Source: an uncultured Gammaproteobacteria bacterium
GTDB lineage: Bacteria > Patescibacteriota > Patescibacteriia > UBA1558 > S5-K13
DNA length: 64,000 nt
Direction of reading: 5' to 3'
NCBI GenBank assembly: GCA_964424195.1
Contig: CAYRHT010000002.1
Location: forward strand, 80,120-144,119
The stretch's first letter is position 1. The number at the start of each line of letters is the position of its first letter. The translations under genes were made by a program, and so were the position numbers. The notes under the pieces were generated by a model that was given only the letters and a program-made list of their open reading frames with translations, was not told the origin of the DNA and searched no databases. Positions 4,006-39,535 of the stretch are shown piece by piece.

Positions 4006-5298
4006 TTAAGGAGTTAATCTGTTAATCATTCGAGGGAAAGGAATGGTTTCTCTAATGTGATGAACACCACAAATCCAACCAGTTAATCTTTCTAAACCAT
4101 AACCAAATCCAGAATGAGTAACAGAACCATATTTTCTTAGATCTAAATACCATTGGAATTCAGCCATTGGTAATTTCTCTTCTTCTATTCTAGCTTTTAA
4201 TATTTCGTAATCATCCTCTCTTTGAGAACCACCAATTATTTCTCCATGACCTTCAGTAGCAATTAAATCTGAACCTAGAACTAAATTATCATCTTCTGAG
4301 TCTCGTTTCATATAGAAGGCTTTGATTGCTTTGGGCCATTTTTCTACAAAGATTGGAACATCACTATTTTCAGTAAGCATAGTTTCATCCTCTGCTCCTA
4401 AATCATCTTCTAAAGTTATTTTAGATCCTTTGGATTGTAAAAATTCTACAGCTGCAGTGTGAGTCATTCTTTTAAAAGGAGCTTTTATCTTCTCTAATTT
4501 ACTAATATCTCTTTCTAAGATTTCTAATTCTTCACTACAATTCTTTAAAACATCTTGAACAATGTAAGAAATTAGATTTTCTTGAATTTCCATATTACCT
4601 TGATGATCACAGAAAGCCATTTCAGCATCCATCATCCAGAATTCTGTTAGATGTCTTCTAGTTTTAGATTTTTCTGCTCTAAAAGTAGGACCAAAGTCAA
4701 AGACTCGTCCATGAGACATAATTGCGGCTTCAATATATAGTTGTCCAGATTGAGAGAGATAGGCTTTTCCCATATCAAAATAATCTACTCCAAACAAAGT
4801 AGTTGTTCCTTCACAAGCATTGGGAGTTAGAATTGGTGAGTCTATTTTAATAAAGTGTTCTTTGTGGAAGAAATCATAAGTAGCTTGAATAATTCTGTCT
4901 CTTACTTTTTGAATAGCCCATTGTTTTTTAGATCTTAACCAGAGGTGTCTATTATCTAGTAAAAAAGCTTCACCATGATCTTTGTTAGAGATTGGATATT
5001 CTTCAGCAACTTGAAGTAATTTTAAATTAGAAACTTGAATTTCATATTCTTCTTTTTTAGGATGCTTAGAAACTTTACCTTCTAATTCAATAGAAGTTTC
5101 TTGAGTAATCTTTTCACATTCATTCCATAATTTTTCCTCAATATCATTTTTAGAAACAATAGCTTGAATAAATCCAGAACCATCTCTAATTTGTAAGAAA
5201 TACAAAGAACCAGATGATCTAAAATTATGGATCCAACCCTCTATTTTTACTTCTTGGTCTAAATGTTTATCTATGTCTGATATAAATACTTTTTTCAT
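4006..5298 (-). CDS. asnS: Asparagine--tRNA ligase (class II AsnRS)
   Basis: 430 aa. N-terminal OB fold, the motif FRAEKSKTRRHLTEFWMMDAEMAF, and the C-terminal GFGYGLERL. Confidence 0.85.
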   Translation of the reverse strand: MKKVFISDIDKHLDQEVKIEGWIHNFRSSGSLYFLQIRDGSGFIQAIVSKNDIEEKLWNECEKITQETSIELEGKVSKHPKKEEYEIQVSNLKLLQVAEEYPISNKDHGEAFLLDNRHLWLRSKKQWAIQKVRDRIIQATYDFFHKEHFIKIDSPILTPNACEGTTTLFGVDYFDMGKAYLSQSGQLYIEAAIMSHGRVFDFGPTFRAEKSKTRRHLTEFWMMDAEMAFCDHQGNMEIQENLISYIVQDVLKNCSEELEILERDISKLEKIKAPFKRMTHTAAVEFLQSKGSKITLEDDLGAEDETMLTENSDVPIFVEKWPKAIKAFYMKRDSEDDNLVLGSDLIATEGHGEIIGGSQREDDYEILKARIEEEKLPMAEFQWYLDLRKYGSVTHSGFGYGLERLTGWICGVHHIRETIPFPRMINRLTP

Positions 5299-14935: not shown

Positions 14936-15346
14936 TTAAAATTTTCGATCATTTCCATGAAAAACAGATGATATTGTGCATAAACAAAAACCTCGTCCAT
15001 TTTTTATTATTAAAGGAGGTGTTATGTGAGGACCTCTTTTATTTTGATTTGAAGTTTTTATAACCTCAAAGTGTCTAATCATAAAACCAATATTTGCAAA
15101 AAATTGGACCAAATCTTCATCAAAAGATATTTTATCTCCTTCTTGTAATTCTTTTCCTTTAGTTTCTTCAATATTATATGTTTTATAATATTTTCCGTTT
15201 ATTTGAATATCAACACGGAAGATGTTTTCTTCTCCTTTTATTTCTCGTGATTTTTTATTAGATATTGTTCCTTCTATGATTTTCATTTTTTCCTCCATTG
15301 ATTTTTTTTCTAATAAAACTTTAAGCTTTTCAGGATGTTTTGTCAA
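14936..15346 (-). CDS. Hypothetical protein
   Basis: 136-aa ORF with no recognisable motifs; convergent with thrS. Confidence 0.4.
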   Translation of the reverse strand: MTKHPEKLKVLLEKKSMEEKMKIIEGTISNKKSREIKGEENIFRVDIQINGKYYKTYNIEETKGKELQEGDKISFDEDLVQFFANIGFMIRHFEVIKTSNQNKRGPHITPPLIIKNGRGFCLCTISSVFHGNDRKF

Positions 15347-15390
15347 TCAATTTATGGACTTTTTTGAGGATAGAAGGTATATTAAAACTT

Positions 15391-17544
15391 ATGAAATACT
15401 ATTTAAAATACTTTGGATGTACCATGAACCAAGCTGATGCTGAGAAATTAGTTAGTGTTTTTGATGCTGCTGGATTTGAAAAGGTAGAACAAATGAAAAA
15501 GGCAGATATTATTACTATCCTCTCTTGTAGTGTCAGACAAAGTGCTATTGATCGAGCCTATGGAGCTTTTCATCACAAGAAATTAAAAAAGGGAGCTATT
15601 AAGATTCTAAGTGGTTGTGTTTTAGATGCTGATGTTAAGAAGCTCCAAGATCGTTTTGATATTATTATTGATATTACTAAAATTAAAGAATTACCAAAGT
15701 TAATAAGAGCTCACAAGCAACATTATAAATACTGTCCAAGTAATAATAAATATTTAGAAGTAGATTCACAATCGGAAAATAAGTGGGAGCAATTAATCCC
15801 AGTTTCTAATGGTTGTAACCAATTCTGTACCTATTGTGCTGTACCATATACTCGAGGTCGAGAAGTTAATCGTTCTGCTCAGAAGATATTAAAAGAAGTT
15901 AAGAATCTTGATAAAGATGTAAAAAAGATTACTTTGTTAGGGCAAACAGTTAATTCATATCTTAACTCTGATCAGAAGAGTAAGATTAAAGACTTTGCAG
16001 ACTTGTTAGAACAAGTAGCTATTTCTAAACCTCAGACTTGGATCACCTTTCTTTCTCCATATCCAACTAAATTTAGTTTAAAGTTAATTAAAGTTATTGC
16101 TAAATATGACAATATTTCCAAGCATATTCATTTACCATTACAATCTGGGAGTGACAAGATTTTAAAGTTAATGAATCGGAAGTATAATATGAAGCAATTT
16201 TACAAGATTGTGGATCAAATTTACAAATATATCCCTGATGCTAATTTAACTACTGATATGATTCTAGGTTTTCCTGGAGAAACTAAAAAAGACTTTCAAG
16301 AATCTTTAAGAGCTATGAAGAAATGTAAATTCACAGCTATTTTTACTGGACTCTACTCTCCTCGTCCCGGAACAGTTTCCGACAAGATCTATGAAGATCA
16401 GATTATTCAGAAAGAAAAGAGAATTCGGGATGAGAAAATTACTAAAGCTGTTGCTCAGATATCAGCTCAGAAGAATAAGAAATTTGTTGGAAAACAATAT
16501 AAGGTTTTAGTACAGAATATTAAAGGTAACATCGCTATAGCTAAGACTAAAAACAATGAAGCTTTACGAGTAAAGAATGTTAATCAAGAAGATTTAGGTA
16601 AATTTATAAATGTAAAAATTACTAAAGCTTTAGATTGGAGTATGGAAGCTGAGAAAGTAAGAGATAAGTTAGTAGTAGTTTTAGGACCAACTGCTTGTGG
16701 TAAAACTAAAATTGGAGTTGATTTAGCTCAGAAATTTAATGGTGAAATAATTTCTGCTGATTCGAGACAAGTATATAAAGGAATGGATATTGGTACTGGT
16801 AAAGACTTGGGAGACTATAATGGAGTCCCTTATCATCTAATAGACATTGCTGATCCGATGAAGCAAATCACTTTAAAAGACTGGCAAAAATTAGCATTTC
16901 AGAAGATTGAAGATTTAAATAGTCAGAATAAATTAGCATTATTAGTTGGTGGAACTGGACTCTACTTAAACTCAATTATTGATGGTTATCTTTTAGAAGA
17001 TATGGAGCCTAATCAGAAATTAAGGAATCAATTAAATAAATCATCTTTAAAAGTATTACAGAATAAATTGAAGAAACTGGATAAAAAAGCATATCAGAAG
17101 ATTGATATAGATAATCCACGAAGGATAATTAGAGCTATTGAAATTGCTAAAGTTGGGAGATCTATCACTAAAATGAAAAAAAATAATCCAGATTTAGATA
17201 TTTTAGTATTAGGAATTAAGTTTGATAGAGATGTAATATATAGTAGAATTGATGACCGTTTGAAACATCGAGTAGAAAAAGAAGGAATGGTTCCTGAGAT
17301 ACGAAAATTACGTCAAAAAGGGGTCTCTTGGAAGCGTTTAGATGACTTTGGATTAGAATATCGTTGGGTAGCTAAATACCTAAAAAAGAAGATAAATAAA
17401 GAAGAATTATTTATTAATCTTTCTCAAGCAATTCATAAATTTGCTAAAAGACAATTAACTTGGTTTAGAAAAAGGAAAGATATTATATGGATTAAAGATA
17501 CAAAAGAAGCTGAGAAATTAGTTAAAAAGTTTTTAAATTCTTAA
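15391..17544 (+). CDS. miaB-miaA: Fusion protein: tRNA-i6A37 methylthiotransferase (MiaB: MTTase + radical SAM + TRAM) fused to tRNA dimethylallyltransferase (MiaA)
   Basis: A single uninterrupted frame. The N-terminal 430 aa start MKYYLKYFGCTMNQ and carry the radical-SAM motif SNGCNQFCTYCAVPY and a TRAM domain. The C-terminal roughly 290 aa start VVVLGPTACGKTKIGVDLA ... ISADSRQVYKGMDIGTGK, the MiaA P-loop and DMAPP site. The track ORF begins at 15340; I prefer the ATG at 15391 (MKYYL). Confidence 0.8.
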   Translation: MKYYLKYFGCTMNQADAEKLVSVFDAAGFEKVEQMKKADIITILSCSVRQSAIDRAYGAFHHKKLKKGAIKILSGCVLDADVKKLQDRFDIIIDITKIKELPKLIRAHKQHYKYCPSNNKYLEVDSQSENKWEQLIPVSNGCNQFCTYCAVPYTRGREVNRSAQKILKEVKNLDKDVKKITLLGQTVNSYLNSDQKSKIKDFADLLEQVAISKPQTWITFLSPYPTKFSLKLIKVIAKYDNISKHIHLPLQSGSDKILKLMNRKYNMKQFYKIVDQIYKYIPDANLTTDMILGFPGETKKDFQESLRAMKKCKFTAIFTGLYSPRPGTVSDKIYEDQIIQKEKRIRDEKITKAVAQISAQKNKKFVGKQYKVLVQNIKGNIAIAKTKNNEALRVKNVNQEDLGKFINVKITKALDWSMEAEKVRDKLVVVLGPTACGKTKIGVDLAQKFNGEIISADSRQVYKGMDIGTGKDLGDYNGVPYHLIDIADPMKQITLKDWQKLAFQKIEDLNSQNKLALLVGGTGLYLNSIIDGYLLEDMEPNQKLRNQLNKSSLKVLQNKLKKLDKKAYQKIDIDNPRRIIRAIEIAKVGRSITKMKKNNPDLDILVLGIKFDRDVIYSRIDDRLKHRVEKEGMVPEIRKLRQKGVSWKRLDDFGLEYRWVAKYLKKKINKEELFINLSQAIHKFAKRQLTWFRKRKDIIWIKDTKEAEKLVKKFLNS

Positions 17545-19042: not shown

Positions 19043-19136
19043 TTTAACTTTAATGTCATTGACATTTTAGTTAATATATGCTATGCTAATATATTGATTT
19101 TATAAAAATAAATTAAATAATAAAATAGGAGGAAAA

Positions 19137-19433
19137 ATGAAAAAGAATGAATTGTTTTATACTAAAACAGACAAGCAATTATTCAAAATAATCCATGATT
19201 TTAACAGTACTGTTGTTAAAGAAATGGTAAGTCAAATCGAGGAAAAGGCTCAAGAATTTGCAAAGATTTGTGGAGTGGACTACAAACTTGTTAGAACATT
19301 TCCCATAAATAATTCCTCAAGATATTCCGGTAAGAGAGTATTGTCTCTTGGTAATATTGAAGCTGGTGATGTGCCGAAATCAGCTTATCAATTAGGATCA
19401 GATTGGACTATGTGGAAATGGTTAAAGAGCTGA
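19137..19433 (+). CDS. Hypothetical small protein, monocistronic
   Basis: 98 aa. RBS AGGAGG 7 nt upstream. Terminators lie on both sides. No recognisable family. Confidence 0.45.
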   Translation: MKKNELFYTKTDKQLFKIIHDFNSTVVKEMVSQIEEKAQEFAKICGVDYKLVRTFPINNSSRYSGKRVLSLGNIEAGDVPKSAYQLGSDWTMWKWLKS

Positions 19434-19503: not shown

Positions 19504-21000
19504 TTACTTTAAATTATCTCTAAACAAGTCTTCTCCAACTTTAGGATTAGCTTTACCTTTAGATTCTTTCATTAACATACCAACAAAGTATTTAATCAAG
19601 TTTACCTTGCCTTCTTGGTATTGTTTAACTTGTTCAGGATTCTTTTTAATTATTTGTTTAACTAATTCTTCTATTTCAGACTCATCACTAACTTGTCCTA
19701 AATCATTTTCTTCAATAATCTGAGAGGGATCTCCTCCGCTCTCAAACATAATCTTTAATATCTTCTGGGCGTTAGAACTATTAACTTTATTCAAATAGAT
19801 GGTTTTAATAAACTCAGCCATGTTCTCAGGAGTGATTTGTAGGTCTTCTATACTAACATTAGCTTCATTCATTAATTTAAATAATTCAGAAGTAATCCAA
19901 CCTTTAATTAATTTTAAGGCTTTCTTTTTATTACTATCCCAAAGTTCATTCTCGGTTTCACTAGTACTTTCTAATTCAGAAATTAGCCATTCTTTAAACT
20001 CAGAGACTACTTTTTCAAAGTATTCACTAATTATTTTGTTATCTATTAGAGTTTCTACATCTCCTAAGCTCAATTCATATTCTTTCATAAATCTCTTTCT
20101 TTTCTCAGCTGGAAGTTCTGGTAGCTCACTTTCTATTTCTTTAATAAGTTTGTCTTCAATAATTAAAGTTGGTAGATCTGGTTCTGGGAAATAACGATAG
20201 TCATTAGCTAATTCTTTTGATCTTTGAAGTTCAGTTATTTGTTGAGAATCATTCCAACCTCGAGTAGTTTCTTCTTTTGGTGGTTTGTTGGCATTCCAAA
20301 GCTCTGTTTGTCTTCTAATTTCATATTCCAGTGCTTTTTCTACGGACTTAAAGGAATTTAGGTTCTTAACTTCAGTTTTAGGATAGAGTTGTGGGTCTCC
20401 CTCTGGTCTCATGGAGATATTAACATCACATCTTAACTGTCCTTTTTCCATATCAGCATTAGATACTTCTAAATAACGACAGATTCTTCTTAAATCTTGA
20501 AGGAAAGATTTAGCCTGAGCAGGAGTCTTAATTTCTGGTTTAGTAACAATCTCAGCCAAAGGAGTTCCAGCTCGATTAAAATCAATTAAGCTATTATCTT
20601 TTTGATGAGTATTTTTAGCAGCATCATTTTCTAGATGTAATCTTTCAATACCAATTCTAACTTTTTCTTTAGTGTTTAAAATATAATAACCTTCTGATGA
20701 GAGCGGTTCTTCAAATTGAGAGATTTGATAGCCAGTTGGAAGGTCAGGATAGAAATATGATTTTCTTTCAAAAACAGATTTCTTATTTATCTTTAAATTT
20801 AAAGCTAGAGCTAATTTAATACCATAATTCACTACTTCTTTATTCAAAACTGGTAGAGTTCCGGGATGACCACTACAAACTGGACAGATTAAAGAATTAG
20901 GTAGTTGATTATGAGCATCATTAGAACAAGAACAAAACATCTTTGATTTAGTTTTTAATTGAACATGTATTTCTAATCCGATTACTGGTTCTAGTTTCAT
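19504..21000 (-). CDS. gatB: Asp-tRNA(Asn)/Glu-tRNA(Gln) amidotransferase subunit B
   Basis: 498 aa. The N-terminus MKLEPVIGLEIHVQLKTKSKMFCSCS is typical of GatB/GatE, and there is a C-terminal GatB/YqeY domain. Confidence 0.9.
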   Translation of the reverse strand: MKLEPVIGLEIHVQLKTKSKMFCSCSNDAHNQLPNSLICPVCSGHPGTLPVLNKEVVNYGIKLALALNLKINKKSVFERKSYFYPDLPTGYQISQFEEPLSSEGYYILNTKEKVRIGIERLHLENDAAKNTHQKDNSLIDFNRAGTPLAEIVTKPEIKTPAQAKSFLQDLRRICRYLEVSNADMEKGQLRCDVNISMRPEGDPQLYPKTEVKNLNSFKSVEKALEYEIRRQTELWNANKPPKEETTRGWNDSQQITELQRSKELANDYRYFPEPDLPTLIIEDKLIKEIESELPELPAEKRKRFMKEYELSLGDVETLIDNKIISEYFEKVVSEFKEWLISELESTSETENELWDSNKKKALKLIKGWITSELFKLMNEANVSIEDLQITPENMAEFIKTIYLNKVNSSNAQKILKIMFESGGDPSQIIEENDLGQVSDESEIEELVKQIIKKNPEQVKQYQEGKVNLIKYFVGMLMKESKGKANPKVGEDLFRDNLK

Positions 21001-21016
21001 ATATTTAATTTAATTT

Positions 21017-21312
21017 TTACATTTTGTTAACTACTTCTATACCAAGTAGATTTAGTCCTGATTTCAATACTAAGCTTAGAGAATTAATTAATAATAATCT
21101 AGCTTTTACAATTTCAGGATTATCAGCGTTTAGAATAGAATTTTGATTATAGTACTTATTAAAAGTTGAAGATAGTTCTAAAAGGTAATTTGTAATTAAA
21201 GATGGTTTGTAATCTCGGGCAGCATTATTTATTACTTTAGGATAACCTCTTAAGAGGTTTAATAGCTCTTTATCTAACTTTGTATTTAGTAATGAATAAT
21301 CTATTTTATTAT
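21017..21312 (-). pseudogene. argS: 3-prime remnant of arginine--tRNA ligase (argS), covering only the last ~97 codons of the C-terminal DALR anticodon-binding domain
   Basis: The reverse-strand frame with no start codon translates to ...LLELSSTFNKYYNQNSILNADNPEIVKARLLLINSLSLVLKSGLNLLGIEVVNKM*. This is the characteristic ArgRS C-terminus ending LLGI..VxxM. The frame is closed by a stop right at the 3-prime end of the adjacent glycosyltransferase gene. Confidence 0.55.
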
Positions 21313-22491
21313 TTAATTTGTTTTTTCGTTAATATAAGACAACATTTGATCTATTTTCTTAGCCCAAGTATGTTCTTTAATAGCTTGTAATCGAGCTTCT
21401 ATTTTGTCAGGAGTATTTGTTTTTAATTCTTCATTGATGAATTTATTAAACTCTTCAAAATCATTAGTAATCTTAATATAATCTTTAAATTGTTCAACTC
21501 CGGGGGCATCAGTTGTAACTATCGGAATACCACAGGCCATATATTCATACAATTTCATTGGACAAGTGTATTTAATGAATTCATTTACTAAGTGAGGAAT
21601 AATACCAACATCAAATTGATTGATATAATCATGGATTTCATGATAGGTTTTAGCTCCCAGAAGATAGATATTTGAATATTGTCTTAGTCTTTCATCGTCT
21701 TCTTTACGCCAGATAGGACCAATCATAACAATTGATTTATCAGGATTCTTCTGAGCAATATGCTCAATTAGATCCATATAGATTCTATTTTCTTGGATAA
21801 CTCCCACATAACCAATAATTGGTCGAGGTATTTGAGCAATATCATTATTTATTAACTTACTAGTAATTTGATAATGTCCTAAATCAATTCCTTGAGTTAT
21901 TTGAAACATATTTTCTTTCCGAGGATGGAATATCTTTTCAGAGTTAGAAGAAAGGATGAATATTAGTTTAGCTTTGTCTCTAATTATTTCATAGTTCTTT
22001 TTTAATTTAGGCCATAGCTTTTTGTAGGAAGCATGTTCACACCAATTATCAACTGTATCAAATACTGAAATATCATGATCAATTTCATCAAAATATTCTG
22101 TAATTAAGGGATAATTTGACCAGAGAATGATATTTTCAAAACCTTCTTTCTGAGTATATTTATTAATGCTTTTTAAAGCTCCTTTGACAGTGAATTTATT
22201 CTTAATAGTTGAATAGACAGTTATTTTCTTATCAGCTTGATAGATTCTAGTGAAGGGAGTTAATTTTATTGTTTTGCCATTGGGAGTGTTAATTATATTC
22301 TCATACCAATTCCTGAAAAATCTTTTCCAAGTGTGAGGGAGATAATCAATAGCTAGAATTCTATTAATCTGATGGTTATTTTTTAAATGATCAACAATAT
22401 GGAAATTACGATTACTAACTCCTCTATCCCATTCAGTAAAGCTAGACATATTGAACATAATCACATCATATTTTTTCTCATTTTTATCCAT
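21313..22491 (-). CDS. Glycosyltransferase, GT1/GT4-like (GT-B fold)
   Basis: 392 aa. The C-terminal motif region GPIWRKEDDERL ... EFIKYTCPMKLYEYMACGIPIVTT is typical of GT-B retaining transferases. Confidence 0.7.
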   Translation of the reverse strand: MDKNEKKYDVIMFNMSSFTEWDRGVSNRNFHIVDHLKNNHQINRILAIDYLPHTWKRFFRNWYENIINTPNGKTIKLTPFTRIYQADKKITVYSTIKNKFTVKGALKSINKYTQKEGFENIILWSNYPLITEYFDEIDHDISVFDTVDNWCEHASYKKLWPKLKKNYEIIRDKAKLIFILSSNSEKIFHPRKENMFQITQGIDLGHYQITSKLINNDIAQIPRPIIGYVGVIQENRIYMDLIEHIAQKNPDKSIVMIGPIWRKEDDERLRQYSNIYLLGAKTYHEIHDYINQFDVGIIPHLVNEFIKYTCPMKLYEYMACGIPIVTTDAPGVEQFKDYIKITNDFEEFNKFINEELKTNTPDKIEARLQAIKEHTWAKKIDQMLSYINEKTN

Positions 22492-23606: not shown

Positions 23607-26600
23607 TTATCTATTCAAAGCTCCTCTAGTCTGAGGACCTACATAACCAACTTGCATGATATCATTAGCTTTTTGGAAGTCTTTTACTGCTTGAGCAGTA
23701 ATAGGTCCAAAATAACCAGTAATATATTCATATGTAAAGTATCCTAGAGCTTTAAGCTTAGTTTGTAATTGTCTTACTTCTTCACTAGTTATTCCAATGT
23801 TTAAGAAACTAGTAAAAATATGATCATTGTTAGTTGTACTTATCTCTTCTTTTTTTACAGATACATCTTCTCCATCTGAATAAGTGATACTACTATCAAT
23901 AACTTGAATATCGTTCCAATTATAGTTAAAGCTATTAAAAGTAGCTTCATCTTTAATCCATCGTTTAGTATTGTCTTCTAAGAGATATACTTTAGGACTA
24001 TTTGGATATTTGAATAAAGTGTAAATAACTGTTTCTGGTATTACATTATCTTCATTTAGATTTTTCACTGTGATTTCTGCTCTATTAACTACAACATCTT
24101 CAAACTTAACTTCTAAATCATTAATACCATCATTATCTAAATCTACATACTTAATTTCATCCAAAGTTAATGTTAAAGTAATTGGATTAGAATGAATAGT
24201 AATAGTTACTATGTTATGAAAGAGGTCTAAGTTAGTGATATTTAAACTATGATTTTGACTAACACTAGTTCCATAATTACTAACTTCAGTATCAAAACTA
24301 GCTGTAGAATTAATATACATTAATAGATTATTTCCAGTAGAACTTACATTGCCTACTTCTCCACTTTGATTCATCCCAACACTAGTATCTGCTGTTCCAG
24401 TCCCTACTGCAGGTGCTGGAGCAGAAGCTCCTCCACCGCCGGAAGTATCATTATCAGTAATTGTAACTGTAATATCAGTTAAACTATATCCATCATAGTT
24501 TGTATCATCACTAGCCGCTGTATGAGTTATTGTTCCAGAATGTGAATCATCTTCATCAGTAGTATCATCAACAGCTGTAATAGTTACTGTTTGCACTGTG
24601 TCCCAGTTAGCAGAAGTGAAGGTAAGAGTAGTTGGACTAACTGTAGATTGACTATCTGGTGTAACCGTAACTACTACATCATCGGTCGGTTCAGAATCTA
24701 AAACTAAAGTATAGGTATCAGTTGTTCCATCTTCAGTGACTGTAGCTGTAGTTTCAGATTGAGTCATTCCAGCCGTATCATTATCAGTAACATTAGCACT
24801 AACACTACTAATGGTAATTCCATCATAACTAGTATCACTACTAGCTGCTGTATGAGTAATAGTAGAAGTATGTGAAGCATCTTCATCTATATCATCATTA
24901 GTAGCTGTAACAGTTACAGTCTGAGCATCTGACCAATCCCCGGTAGTAAAGGTTAAAGTAGAAGAATCAACACTTGATTGTGAATCAACGCTAACTGTAA
25001 TTACCACACTAGCAGTTGGTAGATGATCTAAAACAACAGTATATGTATCGGTTGTTCCAGCTTCCGTTAAATCAGTTGAACTAGAAGATTCAGTGACAGT
25101 AACTCCATCTTCATAGACATATGCTCCTAAATCCCAAGTAACTCTAGTTGTTGTTGCTGGTCCTGGCCAAGTAGCTGCTTTCTCAATACCTAATTCATAT
25201 GTTGAACCTAAAGTAGTTGTTCCTACTCCAATAGCTGGTGATCCAGTCTGAAGAAAGAAATTCAAAGTTGAAGTTGATACAAATAGTGGATCTGCTTCAA
25301 TACTATTTGTAGCATCACTAGTTAATGTTTGCCAAGCTGAAATGGTATTATTATTTGTATTATTATATTTTAAATTAATGTCTCCGCTCTGAGTATAAAA
25401 ACTATTATTGTCATTAGAAAATCCTGAAGTACTATATTCACCAACATTAATAGAATAAAAAGTAGTTGTAGTTGGAGTTATACCGTATATAATATTATTA
25501 TATACTGAACAATTGGTGGAGGCTGTGGCTGTGGCTTCTTCATTATGATATCTTACATCAACACCAAAAGAATGTTCTGCTGTATCAATAGCATTATAAA
25601 TAGTATTATTAACAACATCTACTCCTCCCATTCCTTTCATCACAATTCCAGCAATATTATTATTATAAAGAATATTGTTATATACTCCACCACTAGTATA
25701 CTGCATGGTATTGTTAGATTTTACAATTATTCCATAACCACCACCAGCAACAAAATTATGCTCTATTTGAGCGTTAATATTATATCCTACAATTATATTA
25801 TGAGTAGAATGATTTAATATACTATCATCCCAATAAGCAGCTCCTAATACTTTATTACCGGTAATTATTGCTCCATCTAATTTATTCATTACTCCAATAG
25901 CAGGAGTAGCATCATGACCAACACTTAATATATACCCACCTAAACTTTTACTATTAAAAGTGTTATTAGTTATAGTTGGAGTACCGGCAGTTGATCCTAT
26001 TAGCGGAACCATCTGTATATGAGTATAATTGTCTTCAGTTTCAGTAGTAAAAGTATTATTATTAAAGGTGGAATCATAAGAATCATTCATAAAAAATAAA
26101 TGTTTATCAGCAATTTGACTTGCACTTGAAAGAGTAAAAGTATTATCGCTAATATTTGCACTGTAATTACCAAGAATTTCAAAAAAATGATCAGATGGGG
26201 CAATGCTAGTTGTAATAGTATTACTAGTTAAAGTTAGAGTTCCACCATCAGAAGTTGGTGGAATAACTATCAAATTAGTTAAAGATGTAGCTGGAGTTAT
26301 TGTGTTATCAGTAACATTAAGAGTTATATCACTATCTACATTAAAAACCGCTATAACAGCAGTAGGATTAATTGTGTTATCATCAACAGTCATCGTAGTA
26401 CCGCTCCCCTTAATATTGAAAATATATGAACTAGGATTTACATCTAATGTTGAAGTGGTCATGTTAAAATCGCTATAAATCTGGAAAGTAGCAGCCCCAC
26501 CACCAGTAACAGTAGCGTTATCTATAACTAAAGAAGCACTAGTTGAGAAAGTATAGATACCATAGGTAGATGAATCAAAGATAAAATTACAATCATTAAA

Positions 26601-27047
26601 AGTATAAGTTCCAGTAGCATCATTATGAGTATAAATACCATGAGTAATAGTGCCTACTTCATTAACATCAAAAGTAAAACCAGTAAAGCTAATATCCTGA
26701 CTTGAATTTCTAATATAGATAATATATTTACTTGAAGCATTGGCTTGTACAATAACTTCTCCACTAGCAATCCAAGTAATACCTTTAGCTGGATTCATAT
26801 AAATACCACCATATTCACTAGCTCCTATTTCTTCATAAGTACCAGCATTAACGTAAACAGTATCTCCATTAGCTGCTTGAGTATGAGCAGATTGCATAGT
26901 TAACCAAGCATTTCCAGCACCAGCACTAGTTCCAGCATTACCATCATTTCCAAGTTTATCAACATAATAAGTGGCAGCATAAATTTTCGGAGCAAATACA
27001 AAGATTCCTAGAATGATTAAGAAGGAAATTAGTAGATATTTTTTCAT
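23607..27047 (-). CDS. Large secreted cell-surface protein with a right-handed parallel beta-helix (pectin-lyase-like) region, tandem Thr/Asp-rich repeat domains, and a C-terminal peptidoglycan-binding domain
   Basis: 1146 aa. Signal peptide MKKYLLISFLIILGIFVFAPKIYA. Repeated NxTIxxN/beta-helix turns. Two tandem ~105-aa repeats. The C-terminus LQTKLKALGYFTYEYITGYFGPITAQAVKDFQKANDIMQVGYVGPQTRGAL matches PG_binding_1-type domains. Confidence 0.75.
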   Translation of the reverse strand: MKKYLLISFLIILGIFVFAPKIYAATYYVDKLGNDGNAGTSAGAGNAWLTMQSAHTQAANGDTVYVNAGTYEEIGASEYGGIYMNPAKGITWIASGEVIVQANASSKYIIYIRNSSQDISFTGFTFDVNEVGTITHGIYTHNDATGTYTFNDCNFIFDSSTYGIYTFSTSASLVIDNATVTGGGAATFQIYSDFNMTTSTLDVNPSSYIFNIKGSGTTMTVDDNTINPTAVIAVFNVDSDITLNVTDNTITPATSLTNLIVIPPTSDGGTLTLTSNTITTSIAPSDHFFEILGNYSANISDNTFTLSSASQIADKHLFFMNDSYDSTFNNNTFTTETEDNYTHIQMVPLIGSTAGTPTITNNTFNSKSLGGYILSVGHDATPAIGVMNKLDGAIITGNKVLGAAYWDDSILNHSTHNIIVGYNINAQIEHNFVAGGGYGIIVKSNNTMQYTSGGVYNNILYNNNIAGIVMKGMGGVDVVNNTIYNAIDTAEHSFGVDVRYHNEEATATASTNCSVYNNIIYGITPTTTTFYSINVGEYSTSGFSNDNNSFYTQSGDINLKYNNTNNNTISAWQTLTSDATNSIEADPLFVSTSTLNFFLQTGSPAIGVGTTTLGSTYELGIEKAATWPGPATTTRVTWDLGAYVYEDGVTVTESSSSTDLTEAGTTDTYTVVLDHLPTASVVITVSVDSQSSVDSSTLTFTTGDWSDAQTVTVTATNDDIDEDASHTSTITHTAASSDTSYDGITISSVSANVTDNDTAGMTQSETTATVTEDGTTDTYTLVLDSEPTDDVVVTVTPDSQSTVSPTTLTFTSANWDTVQTVTITAVDDTTDEDDSHSGTITHTAASDDTNYDGYSLTDITVTITDNDTSGGGGASAPAPAVGTGTADTSVGMNQSGEVGNVSSTGNNLLMYINSTASFDTEVSNYGTSVSQNHSLNITNLDLFHNIVTITIHSNPITLTLTLDEIKYVDLDNDGINDLEVKFEDVVVNRAEITVKNLNEDNVIPETVIYTLFKYPNSPKVYLLEDNTKRWIKDEATFNSFNYNWNDIQVIDSSITYSDGEDVSVKKEEISTTNNDHIFTSFLNIGITSEEVRQLQTKLKALGYFTYEYITGYFGPITAQAVKDFQKANDIMQVGYVGPQTRGALNR
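24456..25085 (-). repeat. Two tandem ~315-bp intragenic repeats encoding ~105-aa Thr/Asp-rich (Calx-beta/cadherin-like?) domains
   Basis: Protein repeats TEAGTTDTYTVVLDHLPTASVVITVSVDSQSSVDSSTLTFTTGDWSDAQTVTVTATNDDIDEDASHTSTITHTAASSDTSYDG and TEDGTTDTYTLVLDSEPTDDVVVTVTPDSQSTVSPTTLTFTSANWDTVQTVTITAVDDTTDEDDSHSGTITHTAASDDTNYDG. The boundaries are approximate. Confidence 0.65.
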
Positions 27048-32338: not shown

Positions 32339-33373
32339 TTAGTTATAGTATTTTTCTAATTCTTCAGCTTCTATTTTTACAATATTCTTAAAAATATATT
32401 TTCTTTTTATCTTCATCTTTTTAATTTGTTTCTTATTCTGAAGAAAGAATTTAAAAGTTTGTTTTTCAAATAATAGAATATATCCTAGTTTTTTAAATTC
32501 ATACCAGAAGATAGGCCAGAAATGTTTAAAAATATTCTTAGTAAATTCATTTTTAATAATACAGAATAAATGATTCTTGTAAGAATGTTGATTAATCCAA
32601 GTAGATTTAACCTTTCGGTTTTGGATAATAGATTTACCTCTTTTAATACTTCGATCATGATGAGCTACAACTTCAGGTAAGAAGTAGGATTTGTATCCAG
32701 CTAATTGCAATCTGTAAGCTAAATCAACATCTTCTTTGTAAGAAAAGAAGTCTTCATCAAAATACTCATTATCCATCTTTATCTTCTCTAAAGCCTTTCT
32801 GTTGTAAATTGGACAAGCTCCAGAAGTTCCAAATACTTTTTTTTGTTTTTGGAATTCTTCTTTATCCTTTTCTCCTTGTCCAATATCAAGAACTTGATGA
32901 TTAGGAAGTATTTCTAAACCACAGGTATCAATATTATTAGTTTTTTCCACATCTAGTAATTCTCGAGCTTTTTCTGGTTCAAGATTATCTCCAATATCCA
33001 TCTTCTTAAAATTCCATTGATATACCTTAGGACTCAAAGAACCAATATTCTTTTTTTGATCCAAGAACTCTAAAGAATTCTTTAAGAAGTCTTTGTCTAA
33101 AATTACATCTTGGTTTAAGCAAAGAACATATTCAGAATTAGTCCAAGAAAGTAATTTGTTATGACCCTGAGCAAAACCAGTGTTTTCTTTAAGAGCTACA
33201 ACTTTTAAGTTAGGATAATGTTCCTTTAAGTATTTAACTGAATCATCAGTAGATCCATTGTCTAAGATATTTAATTGCCAATCTGAAAAACTTTGTTGGA
33301 AAATAGATTCTAAACAAAAAGGTAGGTATTTTTTACCATTCCAAACTACTAAGTTGATATCGACTTTTGCCAT
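32339..33373 (-). CDS. Glycosyltransferase family 2
   Basis: 344 aa. GT-A signature VVWNGKKYLPFCLESIFQQSFSDWQLNILDNGSTDDS. Confidence 0.75.
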   Translation of the reverse strand: MAKVDINLVVWNGKKYLPFCLESIFQQSFSDWQLNILDNGSTDDSVKYLKEHYPNLKVVALKENTGFAQGHNKLLSWTNSEYVLCLNQDVILDKDFLKNSLEFLDQKKNIGSLSPKVYQWNFKKMDIGDNLEPEKARELLDVEKTNNIDTCGLEILPNHQVLDIGQGEKDKEEFQKQKKVFGTSGACPIYNRKALEKIKMDNEYFDEDFFSYKEDVDLAYRLQLAGYKSYFLPEVVAHHDRSIKRGKSIIQNRKVKSTWINQHSYKNHLFCIIKNEFTKNIFKHFWPIFWYEFKKLGYILLFEKQTFKFFLQNKKQIKKMKIKRKYIFKNIVKIEAEELEKYYN

Positions 33374-34839
33374 TTTATTTTTTCTAATATTATAATACTA
33401 ATAACTAGGAAACCTATTCCTAAAGGATGATCTAGATAAGGTGAAAATACATGGATGACAGAGATAGTTATTAAACTTAGAGCTAGGGAAATAATTAGTA
33501 TTCCTTCACTCCTCGGCCATTTCTTCATGGCTAGTTTAACAGAATCAATCAGTATTTTCAATATTAAATAGAGATACGCTAAAAGACCTAAGATTCCAAA
33601 CTTCATCCAAATACTTAACCAACCCCATTCAAAACTATATGTTGTCACTGAACCATCAGGATTCTTCTCATTCCTATTCCGAGGATCATGAGACATATAT
33701 GTAATTTCTTGAGCTAAACCATTTCCTAGAATTGGTTGAGCTTTAATTTTTTCTAACATATGAGGTAATAATTCTAAACGGGAATTACTAGCTGCTTCTC
33801 CAGAAGTTAATCTTTTAGCAAATAAGTCATCTAAATCAGTATCAGTATATGGAACTTTAACAAGTAGGAAGATGAACAAAACACTAAGAGCAGTAATTCC
33901 AATGAATTTTAGATAGACTTTAATAATCTCTAAGAACTTGATTTTCTTAACTATTAACCAAACAAAGAGCATGAATAGAAATACGGCTAATCCTACCCAA
34001 TAGCTTCGAGAAAGACTAATTAACAAAGCACTTAGATTTAAAACACTAAGAGTGATTAATAATTTCTTGTCTTTTAAATCAACTAAATCTCTTTTAAAAG
34101 CTAAGATACAGAAAGTAATAATTAGAGAGATAAGGATGTAGATTTGACTTTGGAAGAAGATTCTAAAGAAGCTCGGATTAACAATAGTTATTTCCCCAAT
34201 CCGAGAGTCACGAAGCCATTCATACAAGATAGTTAAATTTACTCCTGGAAAGTGATGGGAGAAGATATAGAAAGTTAGGATAGTTTTAATAGAAAAGAAG
34301 AATGATCCAGCTAGGAAGATATAGAAGAGATTCTTGAATATCTTTTGGTCTTTAGCTATTTGATAGAAGATAGGGAGAATGAAGATGAAGAGATAGCCAT
34401 TTAAATCAAAGAAAATATCTATCAGTCCTCTGTTTTTAAATAAAGCAATTACTATTCCTAAAATTAACATTCCTAAATATATTAGAATAGGAATTAGATA
34501 GGAGCTCTTTAGAAAATCAAATCTTTTTCTTTTAAATAAATATCTAATTCCAGCTAAGAAAGCTAAGATGAAAATAGCCATTCTCAAAGAAACTGTAAAT
34601 CCATTAATATTTAAGTCCATTAAATGCCCTTGAGAACCAACAAAGAGTTCTAGTAAGGGAATATAGACAATAAAGCTACTCTTCTTAAGCATTAAATAGA
34701 ACAAAGCTAGACAAGTAATGATGAAGAATACTATTTCAAATCTAGGAAAGGTATGAGTGTAAAAGAAAAAAATGTCAGCAATTATTAGTGACCAAAAAGT
34801 ATATTTAAAGTAACTATTATTCCAAGTTGGAGAGATCAT
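33349..34839 (-). CDS. O-antigen ligase/polymerase-like (Wzy_C family) integral membrane protein
   Basis: 496 aa, roughly 10-12 TM helices. LSRSYWVGLAVFLF-type motif in a periplasmic loop. It lies within the glycosyltransferase cluster. Confidence 0.55.
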   Translation of the reverse strand: MISPTWNNSYFKYTFWSLIIADIFFFYTHTFPRFEIVFFIITCLALFYLMLKKSSFIVYIPLLELFVGSQGHLMDLNINGFTVSLRMAIFILAFLAGIRYLFKRKRFDFLKSSYLIPILIYLGMLILGIVIALFKNRGLIDIFFDLNGYLFIFILPIFYQIAKDQKIFKNLFYIFLAGSFFFSIKTILTFYIFSHHFPGVNLTILYEWLRDSRIGEITIVNPSFFRIFFQSQIYILISLIITFCILAFKRDLVDLKDKKLLITLSVLNLSALLISLSRSYWVGLAVFLFMLFVWLIVKKIKFLEIIKVYLKFIGITALSVLFIFLLVKVPYTDTDLDDLFAKRLTSGEAASNSRLELLPHMLEKIKAQPILGNGLAQEITYMSHDPRNRNEKNPDGSVTTYSFEWGWLSIWMKFGILGLLAYLYLILKILIDSVKLAMKKWPRSEGILIISLALSLITISVIHVFSPYLDHPLGIGFLVISIIILEKIKWQKSIST

Positions 34840-35690
34840 TATGTTTTTACTTTTGATTTAAGATTAATTTTACTAATTAGATAACCAATAAGCCAAGCTA
34901 TCCTTAATAATATAAATTGCCAAGGAGAATGCCATTTTTTAAAATACTTAATCATAGAATTCTGAAAGTATTTTTGAGTAATACCTCTTGGTACTTGCTC
35001 AAAACTTTTACCAACATAATCAATACATTCAGCTACTGGAGTATACCAAACTTCTCCTCCACTCTTAGATACTTTCTGACAGAAATCTACTTCTTCAAAC
35101 CAAATAAAGTATCTTTCATCTAAACCATTTAATTCTTCATAGATATTTCTTCTCATCATAAAGAAAGCTCCTCGGATAGAATCTACTTTAGAAGCTTGAG
35201 AATAATCAAAGTTTTTACAAAGGTATTTATCTAATATGAATGGTAGAATATGGGGTATTTTAAGAGTAATAGCAAGTTGGTCCCAGAATCTAGGAAAACG
35301 TCTAATATGGTGCAAAGTTTTACGATTTTGGTCTATTAAATGACAACCAGCTATACTAACTTGAGGGTTTTCATCCATCCACTTAATCATGTTCTCTAGA
35401 GTATGAGGAAGAATTTGCATATCTGGGTTTAAGAGTAAAACATAGTCATATTTAGTCTTTTCAAATCCCAGGTTATTGGCTTTAGCAAATCCTAGATTCT
35501 TACGAGAATCAATTAAATTTACTTGAGGGTACTTTTCTTTAATCATTTTTAGACTTCCATCTTGGGAGTTGTTATCAACTACAATTACATCTAATTCAAT
35601 ATTTTCAGAATTAGAAAAGATAGATTGGAGACAATTGTCTAACAAGTCTTTGACTTTGTAATTAACAATGATTATGGATAATTTATGCAT
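34839..35690 (-). CDS. Glycosyltransferase family 2
   Basis: 283 aa. GT-A signature MHKLSIIIVNYKVKDLLDNCLQSIF ... VVDNNSQDGS. Confidence 0.8.
   Translation of the reverse strand: MHKLSIIIVNYKVKDLLDNCLQSIFSNSENIELDVIVVDNNSQDGSLKMIKEKYPQVNLIDSRKNLGFAKANNLGFEKTKYDYVLLLNPDMQILPHTLENMIKWMDENPQVSIAGCHLIDQNRKTLHHIRRFPRFWDQLAITLKIPHILPFILDKYLCKNFDYSQASKVDSIRGAFFMMRRNIYEELNGLDERYFIWFEEVDFCQKVSKSGGEVWYTPVAECIDYVGKSFEQVPRGITQKYFQNSMIKYFKKWHSPWQFILLRIAWLIGYLISKINLKSKVKT
35656..35690. repeat. Direct repeat copy A (GT2 gene 5-prime end) flanking the HEPN-like gene
   Basis: ttgtaattaacaatgattatggataatttatgcat. The first 20 nt are identical to copy B at 36354-36373. Confidence 0.7.
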
Positions 35691-36324
35691 GTTGTTTTTT
35701 AAAGTTTTTTGTTTTTATCAATTTTTGAGCTTCTGAAAACAAATTATTAAATTTTTCTTCTAGTATTTTATGATTATCTCCTGATGACAAATAAAAATTT
35801 ATATTTCCAGATTTTTTTACCAGAAAGTTGATAATGAATAAAGTATTCGAAAATATTCTAGGTAAACCAGATATTTCCAGTGCCCATAATTTTGGTATAA
35901 AGTGAATAAAATCATTTCTTAGATTATTTAATCTTTTTATATCATCATCAATTTCTTTCGTTGATTTTAATTTTTTACTATTTATATATTGGATCATTAT
36001 ATTGCTTTTAATTTTATTGTATAATTTCGGAAAATAATCCAATTTTTCATTGGGTCTTTTTAAATTTTTATTTCGATTATTATATTGATAATAATTTAAC
36101 ATTTTTTTACCAGATTTTTTATCTAAAATAGGAAAATTATTAGTACCTCTAAGTGCATGAACCATAAAATTTTGAAAAGAATTATGTAGGGAAATAATAG
36201 CCCATTTCCAATAATGGTTGTCTTTGGGTATTTTTTTAAGAAATAAGACGAAAACTTCTAGGCTATTAATAGCTTCTAGAATTGTATCTGTTTCTAGATA
36301 TTCTTCGTTATTTTTTTCTAGCAT
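35683..36324 (-). CDS. Hypothetical protein with an R-N-x3-H (HEPN-like) motif
   Basis: 213 aa, very AT-rich codon usage. Motif DIKRLNNLRNDFIHFIP (R136/H141, encoded at about 35896-35925). No other recognisable domain. Its stop overlaps the GT2 start (ATGCATAA). Confidence 0.4.
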   Translation of the reverse strand: MLEKNNEEYLETDTILEAINSLEVFVLFLKKIPKDNHYWKWAIISLHNSFQNFMVHALRGTNNFPILDKKSGKKMLNYYQYNNRNKNLKRPNEKLDYFPKLYNKIKSNIMIQYINSKKLKSTKEIDDDIKRLNNLRNDFIHFIPKLWALEISGLPRIFSNTLFIINFLVKKSGNINFYLSSGDNHKILEEKFNNLFSEAQKLIKTKNFKKQHA

Positions 36325-36325
36325 T

Positions 36326-36385
36326 AATTTAGAATTTATTCATTAAAGATTTTTTGTAATTAACAATGATTATAGAGAAATTCAT
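36326..36385 (-). pseudogene. Vestigial 19-codon remnant of a GT2 gene 5-prime end
   Basis: On the minus strand, ATG at 36385-36383 (an ATGA overlap with the TGA stop of the upstream gene) gives MNFSIIIVNYKKSLMNKF*. This matches the MHKLSIIIVNYK start of the GT2 gene at 35690. Confidence 0.5.
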
Positions 36386-36388
36386 AGA
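36354..36388. repeat. Direct repeat copy B (GT2 5-prime remnant) flanking the HEPN-like gene
   Basis: ttgtaattaacaatgattatagagaaattcataga. A 20-nt exact match to copy A, with about 70% identity over the following 15 nt. Confidence 0.7.
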
Positions 36389-37362
36389 TTTATTTTTTTA
36401 TGTTCTGAGTTAAAAGATATTGTGGATGCTTCTCTAATAAAATATTTTATGATTTTTGGTATTGCTTCTTCAAATATCCATAGAGTTATTTTTTCAAATA
36501 TCCATAGAGAGGATACAATGTAAATAGCTGTTAAAAAGATATTTTTATATATGTTGATTATGAATAAAGGTTTAATATTTTTAAAATAAAAAAAGGAGTA
36601 GAATAATAAATGTAATATCGAATAGAATACTAAAACTTTAGTATTAACCACAAGTCCTATTCCTAAGAGATTGCTTTTTGGAGCTGAGCTCTCTTTTTTC
36701 TCTTTTAAGTAATCTTCTAATTTTTCCTTTTCTATGCTGTTGGGAATGGTAGAACTTATAATAACTTCGTTAATTGTTTCTTGTTTGAATATTGGTGTAT
36801 ATTTATATTTATCTTTAGTTATTATAAGTAGTAGAAAACTAAAAAAATTGGATATATAATAAAATAAATTTTTTACAAGAATACAGTGAAAGAATAATCT
36901 TAATCTAATATACCACCCTTTATTTAAACTAGTTGGTTTTATATGAAGACTATATATTTTATTTAGCAGTTCTACTGCTTGAACTTCTTTATTTTTTTTA
37001 GCCAAGAAGAACTTTTTACTAGTAAGGTTGAAATAATAGTCTTTAGATTCTAGATCAATTGGTTCTGTAATTTTTGGCTTACTACGAAAACTAATTCCAC
37101 CATTAGTATGCTCCTCGCCATATATGACTCTAATGAATAATATTTTATTATTTTCATTATTTTTATATTTTTCATTTGAAATGTAAATAGATATCATGGA
37201 AGCATTTTTATCGTCTTCCATTTTTTTCTTAATACTTATTCCGGGTACATCATTTATATATGGAGTTATATTGTAAAAACCATTTCCAATATTATTGAAT
37301 TTTTCTGCTAACGAATTATTGTTACGATTTTGTTCCATATTATATCTTCTCACAAAACTCAA
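36382..37362 (-). CDS. Hypothetical integral membrane protein (N-terminal soluble ~150 aa plus ~4 TM helices)
   Basis: 326 aa, extremely N/K/I/F-rich. TGA stop. The start region overlaps the gap gene's stop; an alternative start MEQNRNN lies at 37338. No recognisable family. Confidence 0.45.
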   Translation of the reverse strand: MSFVRRYNMEQNRNNNSLAEKFNNIGNGFYNITPYINDVPGISIKKKMEDDKNASMISIYISNEKYKNNENNKILFIRVIYGEEHTNGGISFRSKPKITEPIDLESKDYYFNLTSKKFFLAKKNKEVQAVELLNKIYSLHIKPTSLNKGWYIRLRLFFHCILVKNLFYYISNFFSFLLLIITKDKYKYTPIFKQETINEVIISSTIPNSIEKEKLEDYLKEKKESSAPKSNLLGIGLVVNTKVLVFYSILHLLFYSFFYFKNIKPLFIINIYKNIFLTAIYIVSSLWIFEKITLWIFEEAIPKIIKYFIREASTISFNSEHKKINL

Positions 37363-38338
37363 TTAATCTATTTGAATATCCCCATTCATTATCATACCAA
37401 GAAACTACTTTAACTAAATTGTCACAGATTACAGTGGTTGATAAAAGGTCTACAATAGAAGAATGGGGATTACCAATAATATCAGTAGAAACAATTGGCT
37501 CTTCAGTAGCTTGGAGAATACCTTGCCATTTTTTAAGTTTAGCTTCCTTTTTAAATACTTTGTTAATTTGTTCAGCAGTAACTTTCTTTTTAGTTCGAAT
37601 AGTAATATCTGATAATGAACCATCAGCTACTGGAACTCGAATAGCCATACCATCAAATTTACCTTTTAATTTAGGAATTACTTTAGTAGTAGCAATAGCT
37701 GCTCCAGTTGTTGTGGGAATAATATTAATAGCTGCAGAACGAGCTCTTCTTAAGTCTTTATGAGGAGCATCAATTAGTTTTTGATCAGCAGTATATCCAT
37801 GAACTGTAGTCATTAAAGCTTTTTCAACACCAAAATTATCACACATAATTTTCATTACTGGAGTAATACAATTAGTAGTACAAGAAGCTAGGTCATAGAT
37901 CTTTTTACTTTTAGATATTTTGTCTTCATTTACTCCAGGAACTATAGTTTGGATACCATTGCCTTTAGAAGGAGCGGAAATAACTACTTTCTGAGCTCCA
38001 GCTTTGAGATGTAAACTAGCTCCAGCTTTGTCTCTAAATACTCCAGTAGATTCAATAACTATATCAACTTCTAATTCTTTCCAAGGTAAATTAACTGGAT
38101 CTTTTTCAGAGAAAGCTGGTATCTTTTTACCATTGATAGTTAAAGCATCTCCACTAGCCTTAATATCTCCTTTAAAGTTTTCTTGCACAGAATCATACTT
38201 TAAAAGATGAGCTAGGGTTTTGTTATCTGTTAGATCATTAATAGCTACTATTTGAATATTCTTATTCTTCAAAGCTATTTTAAAAGTTCCTCTACCTATT
38301 CTACCAAAACCATTGATAGCGATTCTTATTTTCTTCAT
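37340..38338 (-). CDS. gap: Type I glyceraldehyde-3-phosphate dehydrogenase
   Basis: 332 aa. NAD-binding motif INGFGRIGR and the catalytic motif ASCTTNC. Confidence 0.9.
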   Translation of the reverse strand: MKKIRIAINGFGRIGRGTFKIALKNKNIQIVAINDLTDNKTLAHLLKYDSVQENFKGDIKASGDALTINGKKIPAFSEKDPVNLPWKELEVDIVIESTGVFRDKAGASLHLKAGAQKVVISAPSKGNGIQTIVPGVNEDKISKSKKIYDLASCTTNCITPVMKIMCDNFGVEKALMTTVHGYTADQKLIDAPHKDLRRARSAAINIIPTTTGAAIATTKVIPKLKGKFDGMAIRVPVADGSLSDITIRTKKKVTAEQINKVFKKEAKLKKWQGILQATEEPIVSTDIIGNPHSSIVDLLSTTVICDNLVKVVSWYDNEWGYSNRLIEFCEKI

Positions 38339-38354
38339 ATGTTTATTTAATTAT

Positions 38355-38894
38355 TTATTTTAAATTATATCCAGCCTCTAAAGCTGCAATATTCATCTTT
38401 TTAAGCTCAGGATATTGTTTGTATTTGTGAGCTAATTTTTTGTTCACTTCCTTTTTAATATCTTCTAAACTTAGAATATCTTTAATATGTCTAACTATTA
38501 ATCCTAGAACTAACATATTCATTACTCGATTACTTCCCATTTCATTAGCTAGAGTATCAAAAGCATATCCTTTAGCTCCTTTGGGAGCTGATTTTACAAA
38601 GTCTTTGTTGTAGATAATTACAGATTTGTTATTAACATAGTCTTCTGCTCGAGCAATAGATCTTTCGGATAGGAAGACAGCTATGTCAGCGATAATAAAC
38701 TTAGGATAGTTAATTTTATCTTTTCCAAACTTAATATATCCTAAAGAAACTCCACCTCTTTGTTCTACTCCATAGTTAGGAACAAAAGAAACTTCTAAGC
38801 CTTTGTGATAAGCAGTTTCAGTTAAGATTTTACTAATAGTTTGAACTCCTTGTCCTCCTTCACCAGCTATAAGTATTTTAATATTATGTTTCAT
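38355..38894 (-). CDS. 2-oxoacid:ferredoxin oxidoreductase gamma subunit (PorG/KorC-like)
   Basis: 179 aa. Motif IKILIAGEGGQGVQTISKIL, typical of POR gamma subunits. Confidence 0.7.
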   Translation of the reverse strand: MKHNIKILIAGEGGQGVQTISKILTETAYHKGLEVSFVPNYGVEQRGGVSLGYIKFGKDKINYPKFIIADIAVFLSERSIARAEDYVNNKSVIIYNKDFVKSAPKGAKGYAFDTLANEMGSNRVMNMLVLGLIVRHIKDILSLEDIKKEVNKKLAHKYKQYPELKKMNIAALEAGYNLK

Positions 38895-38895
38895 G

Positions 38896-39531: not shown

Positions 39532-39535
39532 ATAT

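Follow-up and report, generated by a model that had tools for sequence, protein, structure and literature searches.

A start-less 3' remnant of argS between a glycosyltransferase gene and gatB in a Patescibacteria genome, and its probable origin by deletion between short direct repeats

The window analyzed here, i.e., the whole stretch of 64 kb of DNA, comes from a member of the Patescibacteria/CPR with a low GC content (29.6%), and carries on its minus strand two intact genes that are separated by a piece of a third. The upstream gene encodes a GT1-family glycosyltransferase (GT1; 21313..22491, 392 aa; Pfam Glycos_transf_1, Glyco_trans_1_4, and Glyco_trans_1_2) and terminates in a TAA stop codon at 21315-21313, while the downstream gene is gatB (19504..21000, 498 aa; Pfam GatB_N, E=1.4e-113, and GatB_Yqey). 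The piece between them is a fragment of argS, the gene of arginyl-tRNA synthetase (ArgRS), which runs on the minus strand from 21328 to 21020 as an open frame of 103 sense codons, with a translation that ends in ...KSGLNLLGIEVVNKM, and is followed by the native argS stop codon, a TAA at 21019-21017 of the same strand, as all the intact orthologs end at the position of the C-terminal ...KM* in the alignment. The 16-nt spacer between argS and gatB (21001..21016, minus strand) has also been retained, and resembles the argS-gatB spacer of a close relative (locus L088). At its upstream end, the frame of the fragment is closed by a TAA at 21331-21329, within the 3' end of GT1, and no ORF of at least 20 aa initiated by ATG, GTG, or TTG is found in this frame, which bears out the description of the feature in the first-pass annotation as an orphan argS 3' fragment that lacks a start.

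The assignment to ArgRS is supported by each of the profiles used. The only Pfam domain detected in the fragment is DALR_1 (E=1.1e-27, profile positions 19-117 of 117), while the TIGR00456 argS model aligns through its positions 477-569 of 569 with 85.3 bits, below the family cutoff of 261.65, and an ArgRS profile built in this analysis from 90 full-length sequences matches at E=6.9e-37 through its model positions 469-568. The fragment also aligns with the last residues of the solved ArgRS structures (2zue, residues 537-628 of 629; yeast 1bs2, residues 514-607 of 607), and is 84% identical to the C-terminus of P0158, an intact ArgRS in syntenic position. The N-terminal domain Arg_tRNA_synt_N (PF03485), which was found in the orthologs P0154-P0165, is absent from the fragment, and the class-I Rossmann core (tRNA-synt_1d, PF00750), with its HIGH and KMSK motifs, is absent from the locus. 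Given that the remnant has neither a start codon nor catalytic residues, it cannot charge tRNA.

The 103 codons of the open frame do not all have the same origin. Codons 7-103 (21020..21310, minus strand), which make up nearly the whole DALR anticodon-binding domain as delimited by Pfam and TIGR00456, are derived solely from argS, and these last 97 sense codons agree with the figure of approximately 97 given by the first-pass annotation. Codons 4-6 belong to a repeat at the junction, which is described below, and codons 1-3 (21320..21328, minus strand; R-K-N) are GT1 coding sequence that is open by chance in the argS frame, with nucleotides that match the 3' end of GT1 in the related locus L107. 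The R and the N of these codons are seen in none of 13 orthologs, because these three codons result from reading GT1 in the -1 frame.

The gene order of the relatives defines what the locus would have looked like before the loss. In a synteny survey of 80 GTDB loci around homologs of gatB, a full-length argS lies directly upstream of gatB, on the same strand, in the three loci closest by gatB identity (L004, 74%; L005, 61%; L007, 60%), and the other 77 have no argS in this position. In these three loci, an ortholog of GT1 (62-67% identical) is found directly upstream of argS, and beyond it, in L005 and L007, an ortholog of GT4 is followed by the radical-SAM, 475-aa, and LigB genes, which lie at 28-31 kb in the window. 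When the ArgRS of L004 was used as the query, closer intact orthologs were retrieved, with C-termini 74-84% identical to the fragment. The loci of this group (L084, L085, and L086, together with L087 and L088) share the order MscS, GT4 (370 aa), GT1 (391-392 aa), argS (566-584 aa), and gatB, with identities to the window of 89-90% for gatB and 87-92% for GT1, and their syntenic ArgRS proteins are intact (P0158, 567 aa, in L084-L086; P0164, 584 aa, in L087; P0160, 566 aa, in L088). In L088, the shared order extends as far as the radical SAM, 475-aa, LigB, GT2, GT2, and Wzy genes, which correspond to 27-35 kb of the window, and in L107, argS starts 5 nt after GT1. The order GT4-GT1-argS-gatB, with argS at its full length, is thus present in every close relative recovered, from six distinct Patescibacteria lineages. 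To judge from this gene order, GT1 is the ancestral upstream neighbor of argS and gatB its ancestral downstream neighbor, and what had been called a glycosylation island is a conserved core neighborhood.

The two genes meet at a stretch of 9 nt, AAATTAAAT (21311..21319, minus strand), which overlaps the GT1 stop codon and, at the same time, corresponds to the argS codons K-L-N, so that one copy of a repeat has been kept. In the relatives, copies of AAATTAAAT are found at the stop codon of GT1 in L107 and at the argS codons K-L-N (485-487 of 584) in L087. To the left of this stretch, the window matches the end of the L107 GT1 at 28 of 31 nt and argS at 11 of 31, whereas to its right, the match is to the argS of L087 (34 of 40 nt), rather than to the spacer and argS 5' end of L107 (18 of 40). 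The L107 gene has the terminus ...TCTTATATTAACGAAAAAATAAATTAAAT, which is followed by CAT ATG, where argS starts, and its nucleotides are nearly identical to those of the window. The presence of AAATTAAAT at both endpoints and the switch of the flanking identities across it are the signature of a short direct-repeat deletion, in which the two endpoints are seen in different relatives (L107 on the GT1 side and L087 on the argS side) and their co-existence in a single ancestor is inferred. Measured on the relatives, the lost segment has 1,420-1,489 bp, which is made up of a spacer of 15-38 nt and the argS codons 1 to approximately 467. GT1 itself is unchanged, given that its ...NEKTN* end is native, as can be seen from the ...NEKIN* and ...NEKMN* ends in relatives. 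A breakpoint inside the last GT1 codons, with a new TN* end, was considered and dropped, as the native ...NEKIN* of L107 has the same nucleotides.

The interpretation that best fits the locus, and one in which considerable confidence can be placed, is that it represents the in-situ pseudogene remnant of the ancestral argS, produced by a single direct-repeat deletion of approximately 1.42-1.49 kb. The ancestor would have had the order GT4-GT1-argS-gatB on the minus strand, and a single deletion would have occurred between two copies of AAATTAAAT, one at the GT1 stop codon and the other at argS codons ~468-470 (in the numbering of a 567-aa ortholog). This event would have removed the spacer between GT1 and argS and the first ~83% of argS, with the loss of the N-terminal tRNA-binding domain and of the whole catalytic Rossmann core, as well as of the helix with which the anticodon-binding domain begins, and would have left GT1, the last ~97-100 codons of argS, the argS-gatB spacer, and gatB untouched. 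Established knowledge of such deletions points to slippage or illegitimate recombination as the likely mechanism, and the event may have been recent. The loss would have been tolerable owing to another, divergent ArgRS gene at a different site of the ~953 kb genome. The remnant is probably transcribed within a read-through message from GT1 to gatB and not translated. The first-pass annotation had named a deletion scar as its second option, and this option has been upheld by the synteny of the relatives and by the repeat at the junction.

A number of other features were observed in the window. A gene (23607-27047, minus strand) whose product of 1146 aa carries a PG_binding_1 domain at its C-terminus lies between MscS and GT4, which are directly adjacent in L084 and L088, and it looks like a lineage-specific insertion of 3.4 kb, at 2.3 kb from the argS deletion. 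On the other side of gatB, an ORF of 98 aa (19137-19433, plus strand) has a strong GGAGG ribosome-binding site, but no Pfam match and no homolog in the relatives that were fetched; in L088, its slot is occupied by a different ORF of 92 aa, with the upstream leader conserved. An inverted match of 24 of 25 nt flanks gatB (21301-21325 and 19104-19128), and such a copy was found for 1 of 9140 sampled 25-mers. As a meaningful repeat, this match was rejected and judged a coincidence, as both copies are native sequence conserved in relatives: the copy at 19.1 kb is the conserved 5' leader of the small ORF, also present in L088, and the copy at 21.3 kb is native argS and GT1 sequence, with a 14-mer that is also found in the argS of L087. 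Further away, a single ORF (15340-17544, plus strand) joins MiaB, a radical SAM methylthiotransferase, to MiaA (IPPT), in a fusion that has 706-756 aa in this organism and its close relatives and is represented by two separate ORFs in L005 and L007. Two genes of class-II synthetases of the tRNA-synt_2 type (Asp/Asn/Lys) are located within 4 kb of one another (266-1675 and 4006-5298, both on the minus strand).

Genomic islands, ICEs, and prophages can integrate into the 3' end of a gene or tRNA, with the duplication of this end as attL and attR. The fragment had been read in these terms, as the att-type boundary and left edge of an envelope or glycosylation island of approximately 16 kb, which would have integrated into the 3' end of argS and supplied a replacement, and the locus does present a gene 3' fragment that adjoins a block of glycosyltransferase genes, as well as a weak, AT-rich direct match of 36 nt (83%) between 21290-21325 and 37131-37164. 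This match falls inside an ORF, however, and is at the level expected by chance in AT-rich DNA, and the genes of the supposed island (GT1, GT4, MscS, radical-SAM, LigB, GT2, GT2, and Wzy) are found in the same order beside an intact argS in the relatives, which argues that the glycosyltransferase genes are ancestral neighbors and not an insertion. The comparison of synteny in relatives, which had been proposed as a check, provides no empty site, since GT4-GT1-argS-gatB is common to the close relatives. Nor is there a shift in GC content (28.6% versus 29.6%), and a left edge of an island at the fragment is not supported. An integrase was sought at the other end, where the Pfam scan of the ORFs at 33349-40255 identified Wzy, GT2, two ORFs with no match, GAPDH, POR, NUDIX, and a TPP enzyme, with no integrase or recombinase at 33-40 kb, and the GT1 end is likewise devoid of an integrase. 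A second copy of the ~300 bp was likewise sought, and apart from short AT-rich matches, blastn and tblastn of the fragment against the window recover only the fragment itself; the 34 ArgRS queries and the ArgRS HMM revealed neither a complete argS at the far boundary nor another DALR copy in the window. The integration-footprint reading is refuted by the synteny, on the evidence of gene order, and an island that replaced the end of argS must be considered highly improbable.

A mis-join in the assembly or binning, with an argS that is truly intact, would be another way to produce this junction, and it must be kept in mind that the data come from a metagenome and that the sequence around the junction is AT-rich and of low complexity. 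Against this, the junction region is identical to the window, with no mismatches over up to 21.5 kb, in three assemblies, one from JGI (3300022916, contig Ga0233431_1000003, 952,420 bp, in which the window occupies positions 643,887-707,886) and two from ENA. The exact GT1 and gatB proteins were each found on 19 contigs from four sources (NCBI, JGI, Logan, and ENA), the longest with 953,322 bp, where the junction is implied. The three loci compared with the window come from 24 contigs that were read, in a collection in which 44 blocks index the exact gatB protein. In addition, among the matches listed from a collection of 5.8 billion clusters, the identity of intact ArgRS proteins to the remnant does not exceed 84%. 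Identity across independent assemblies argues that this is not an assembly error, so that the suggestion of a fragment wrongly joined to a full argS did not hold up, and the probability of an artefact can be considered close to negligible.

The state of conservation of the remnant bears on both its age and its possible function. Its dN/dS against the intact orthologs is 0.127-0.145, in comparison with 0.092-0.117 between intact orthologs over the same 100 codons, and its amino-acid distances are no larger than those among the intact orthologs. Of the 40 columns that are invariant in the clade (13 intact orthologs), none has changed, and the two novel residues are both at variable columns, which makes the remnant as conservative as any intact sequence, with no stops, indels, or excess of nonsynonymous change. 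With approximately 91 nonsynonymous sites in the invariant codons and zero changes, the 95% upper bound on the neutral substitutions per site since the loss of constraint is ~0.033, while dS to the nearest sampled relatives is ~0.8. This pattern indicates that either the deletion would be very recent, dating to the final few percent of the lineage's branch, or the piece would still be under selection, and the status of pseudogene is compatible with an undecayed remnant only if the deletion was very recent. Recency is favored over continued selection, because there is no start codon, no called gene, and no RNA family or promoter signal, and because the A-run at the junction is ancestral and non-canonical. 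Scans for promoters, terminators, and Rfam families over 20.5-21.9 kb yielded nothing above background.

The alternative is that the remnant would be a functional DALR module, either free-standing or fused with GT1, expressed through a non-canonical start or a -1 slip on the A-run at the 3' end of GT1, and kept undecayed by purifying selection. This possibility draws on the unchanged invariant residues and on a dN/dS of 0.13, equal to that of the intact orthologs, on the retention of nearly the entire Pfam DALR_1 domain, and on the frame of argS, which is offset by -1 from that of GT1, with GAAAAAAC at the junction. NrtL (NCBIfam) is, moreover, a known family of free-standing anticodon-binding proteins related to ArgS, and other ORFs with only a DALR domain or a chimeric structure (P0004, P0005, and P0008) are found in metagenomes. 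A very recent deletion accounts equally well for the lack of decay, however, and no Shine-Dalgarno motif was seen upstream on reading the sequence, in addition to the lack of ATG, GTG, and TTG starts. Read in the GT1 frame, the A-run does not form a canonical X XXY YYZ heptamer, and it is ancestral in L107, which keeps an intact argS, and a GT1-DALR fusion by -1 frameshift was rejected on these grounds, i.e., a non-canonical slippery run that pre-exists in relatives with an intact argS. The gene callers of all the source assemblies called no gene at the fragment, the NrtL score was 32 bits, where the cutoff is 340, and the other DALR-only ORFs lie on contigs of 650-900 bp, one with a coverage of ~1. 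A retained module is, on balance, unlikely.

These metagenomic ORFs (L105, 578-871; L106, 120-545; and P0005) are scars of similar deletions or, alternatively, chimeric contigs of low coverage. P0004 has 97 aa and an ATG start, and is internal to a contig of 900 bp, while in P0008 and P0005 the DALR C-terminus of ArgRS is fused to the first residues of EF-Tu and of an NDK-like protein, respectively.

If argS was lost through a direct-repeat deletion, as is proposed here, the working ArgRS has to be sought elsewhere, given that the enzyme is essential and a second ArgRS is thus expected. No other ArgRS-like sequence was found in the 64 kb window by tblastn with 34 full-length ArgRS queries, and a profile HMM search of the six-frame translation found no other ArgRS in 84 kb, which comprise the window and 10 kb of flank on each side. 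Two types of CPR ArgRS were used as queries, that of the clade itself (L004) and that of a sister clade (L005), with listed matches that reach down to ~50% identity, and neither type has a match on the contig of this genome (952,420 or 953,322 bp) among the best 120 listed, so a replacement, if present, would be less than ~50% identical to both types. An intact allele of the organism's own argS, expected as the top match, is absent from the matches listed, where the best C-terminal match of an intact ArgRS to the remnant is 84%. With the fragment itself as the query, the matches were only short edge fragments, a search of representative sequences gave matches of at most 51% identity, and the matches listed from a metagenome scan with the fragment comprise only AT-rich patterns and distant relatives. 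In the case of L088, a second ArgRS type on a large contig was not among the best 120 matches listed. A weak match of the ArgRS HMM in L103 (9403-10017, E=0.015) was discarded as an AAA-like ORF and not an ArgRS.

The working ArgRS presumably lies elsewhere in the genome, in a divergent form. A genome of ~0.95 Mb with no functional ArgRS, which would have just lost its only copy and would depend on a host or partner for the charging of arginyl-tRNA, or in which the DALR domain would be kept as a trans-acting or GT1-fused tRNA-binding module, is very unlikely. No relevant literature was found on the sample or on CPR ArgRS pseudogenes. The ArgRS of the clade (L004, 597-2345; P0154-P0165) is 50-62% identical to sequences labeled Woesearchaeota or Nanoarchaeota, but it shares only 35% identity with the ArgRS encoded between GT1 and gatB in the sister CPR lineages L005 and L007. 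These identities suggest in-situ replacement or a transfer between CPR and DPANN.

The annotation of the locus can be corrected: the glycosyltransferase block is not a mobile island but belongs to the syntenic core of the genome, and the argS piece is probably a deletion scar. The feature is real but is an ordinary gene remnant, of modest interest apart from the whereabouts of the working ArgRS, although it would also provide a clean and datable case of how a streamlined CPR genome loses a gene through short repeats. As the gene lost is that of an essential synthetase, a divergent gene would have taken the place of argS recently, in a non-orthologous or xenologous displacement. If the genome had no other ArgRS, on the other hand, it would be a rare free-standing bacterial genome without an essential synthetase, which would bear on the dependence of CPR episymbionts on their hosts.

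In comparison with known systems, the locus has a superficial likeness to the islands that integrate at gene 3' ends, in that a 3' gene fragment stands beside envelope genes of accessory appearance, but it differs from them in the lack of an integrase, of a duplicated 3' end, and of an intact copy of the target, and in the synteny of the block in relatives. The remnant corresponds to the orthologous C-terminal DALR domain of ArgRS (TIGR00456; PF03485, PF00750, and PF05746), with the conserved C-terminal Met kept, but, unlike the functional enzyme, it has neither the N-terminal domain nor the catalytic core and scores below the family cutoff, and it cannot be an enzyme. As in NrtL (NF045898), a DALR-type domain is found without the catalytic core of ArgRS, although NrtL has 327 aa and its own start, and the remnant matches only positions 240-323 of its model. 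Finally, deletions between short direct repeats through replication slippage or illegitimate recombination are classic in lacI of E. coli and widespread in reduced bacterial genomes. The locus departs from the pseudogenes formed in this way in that argS is an essential, single-copy aminoacyl-tRNA synthetase gene, that the remnant is wholly undecayed, and that the repeat was pieced together from two relatives and not observed in a single ancestor; it resembles them in the presence of intact orthologs at the same locus in relatives, in a remnant without its 5' part or a start codon between untouched neighbors, and in the single copy of a 9-nt repeat that marks the junction.
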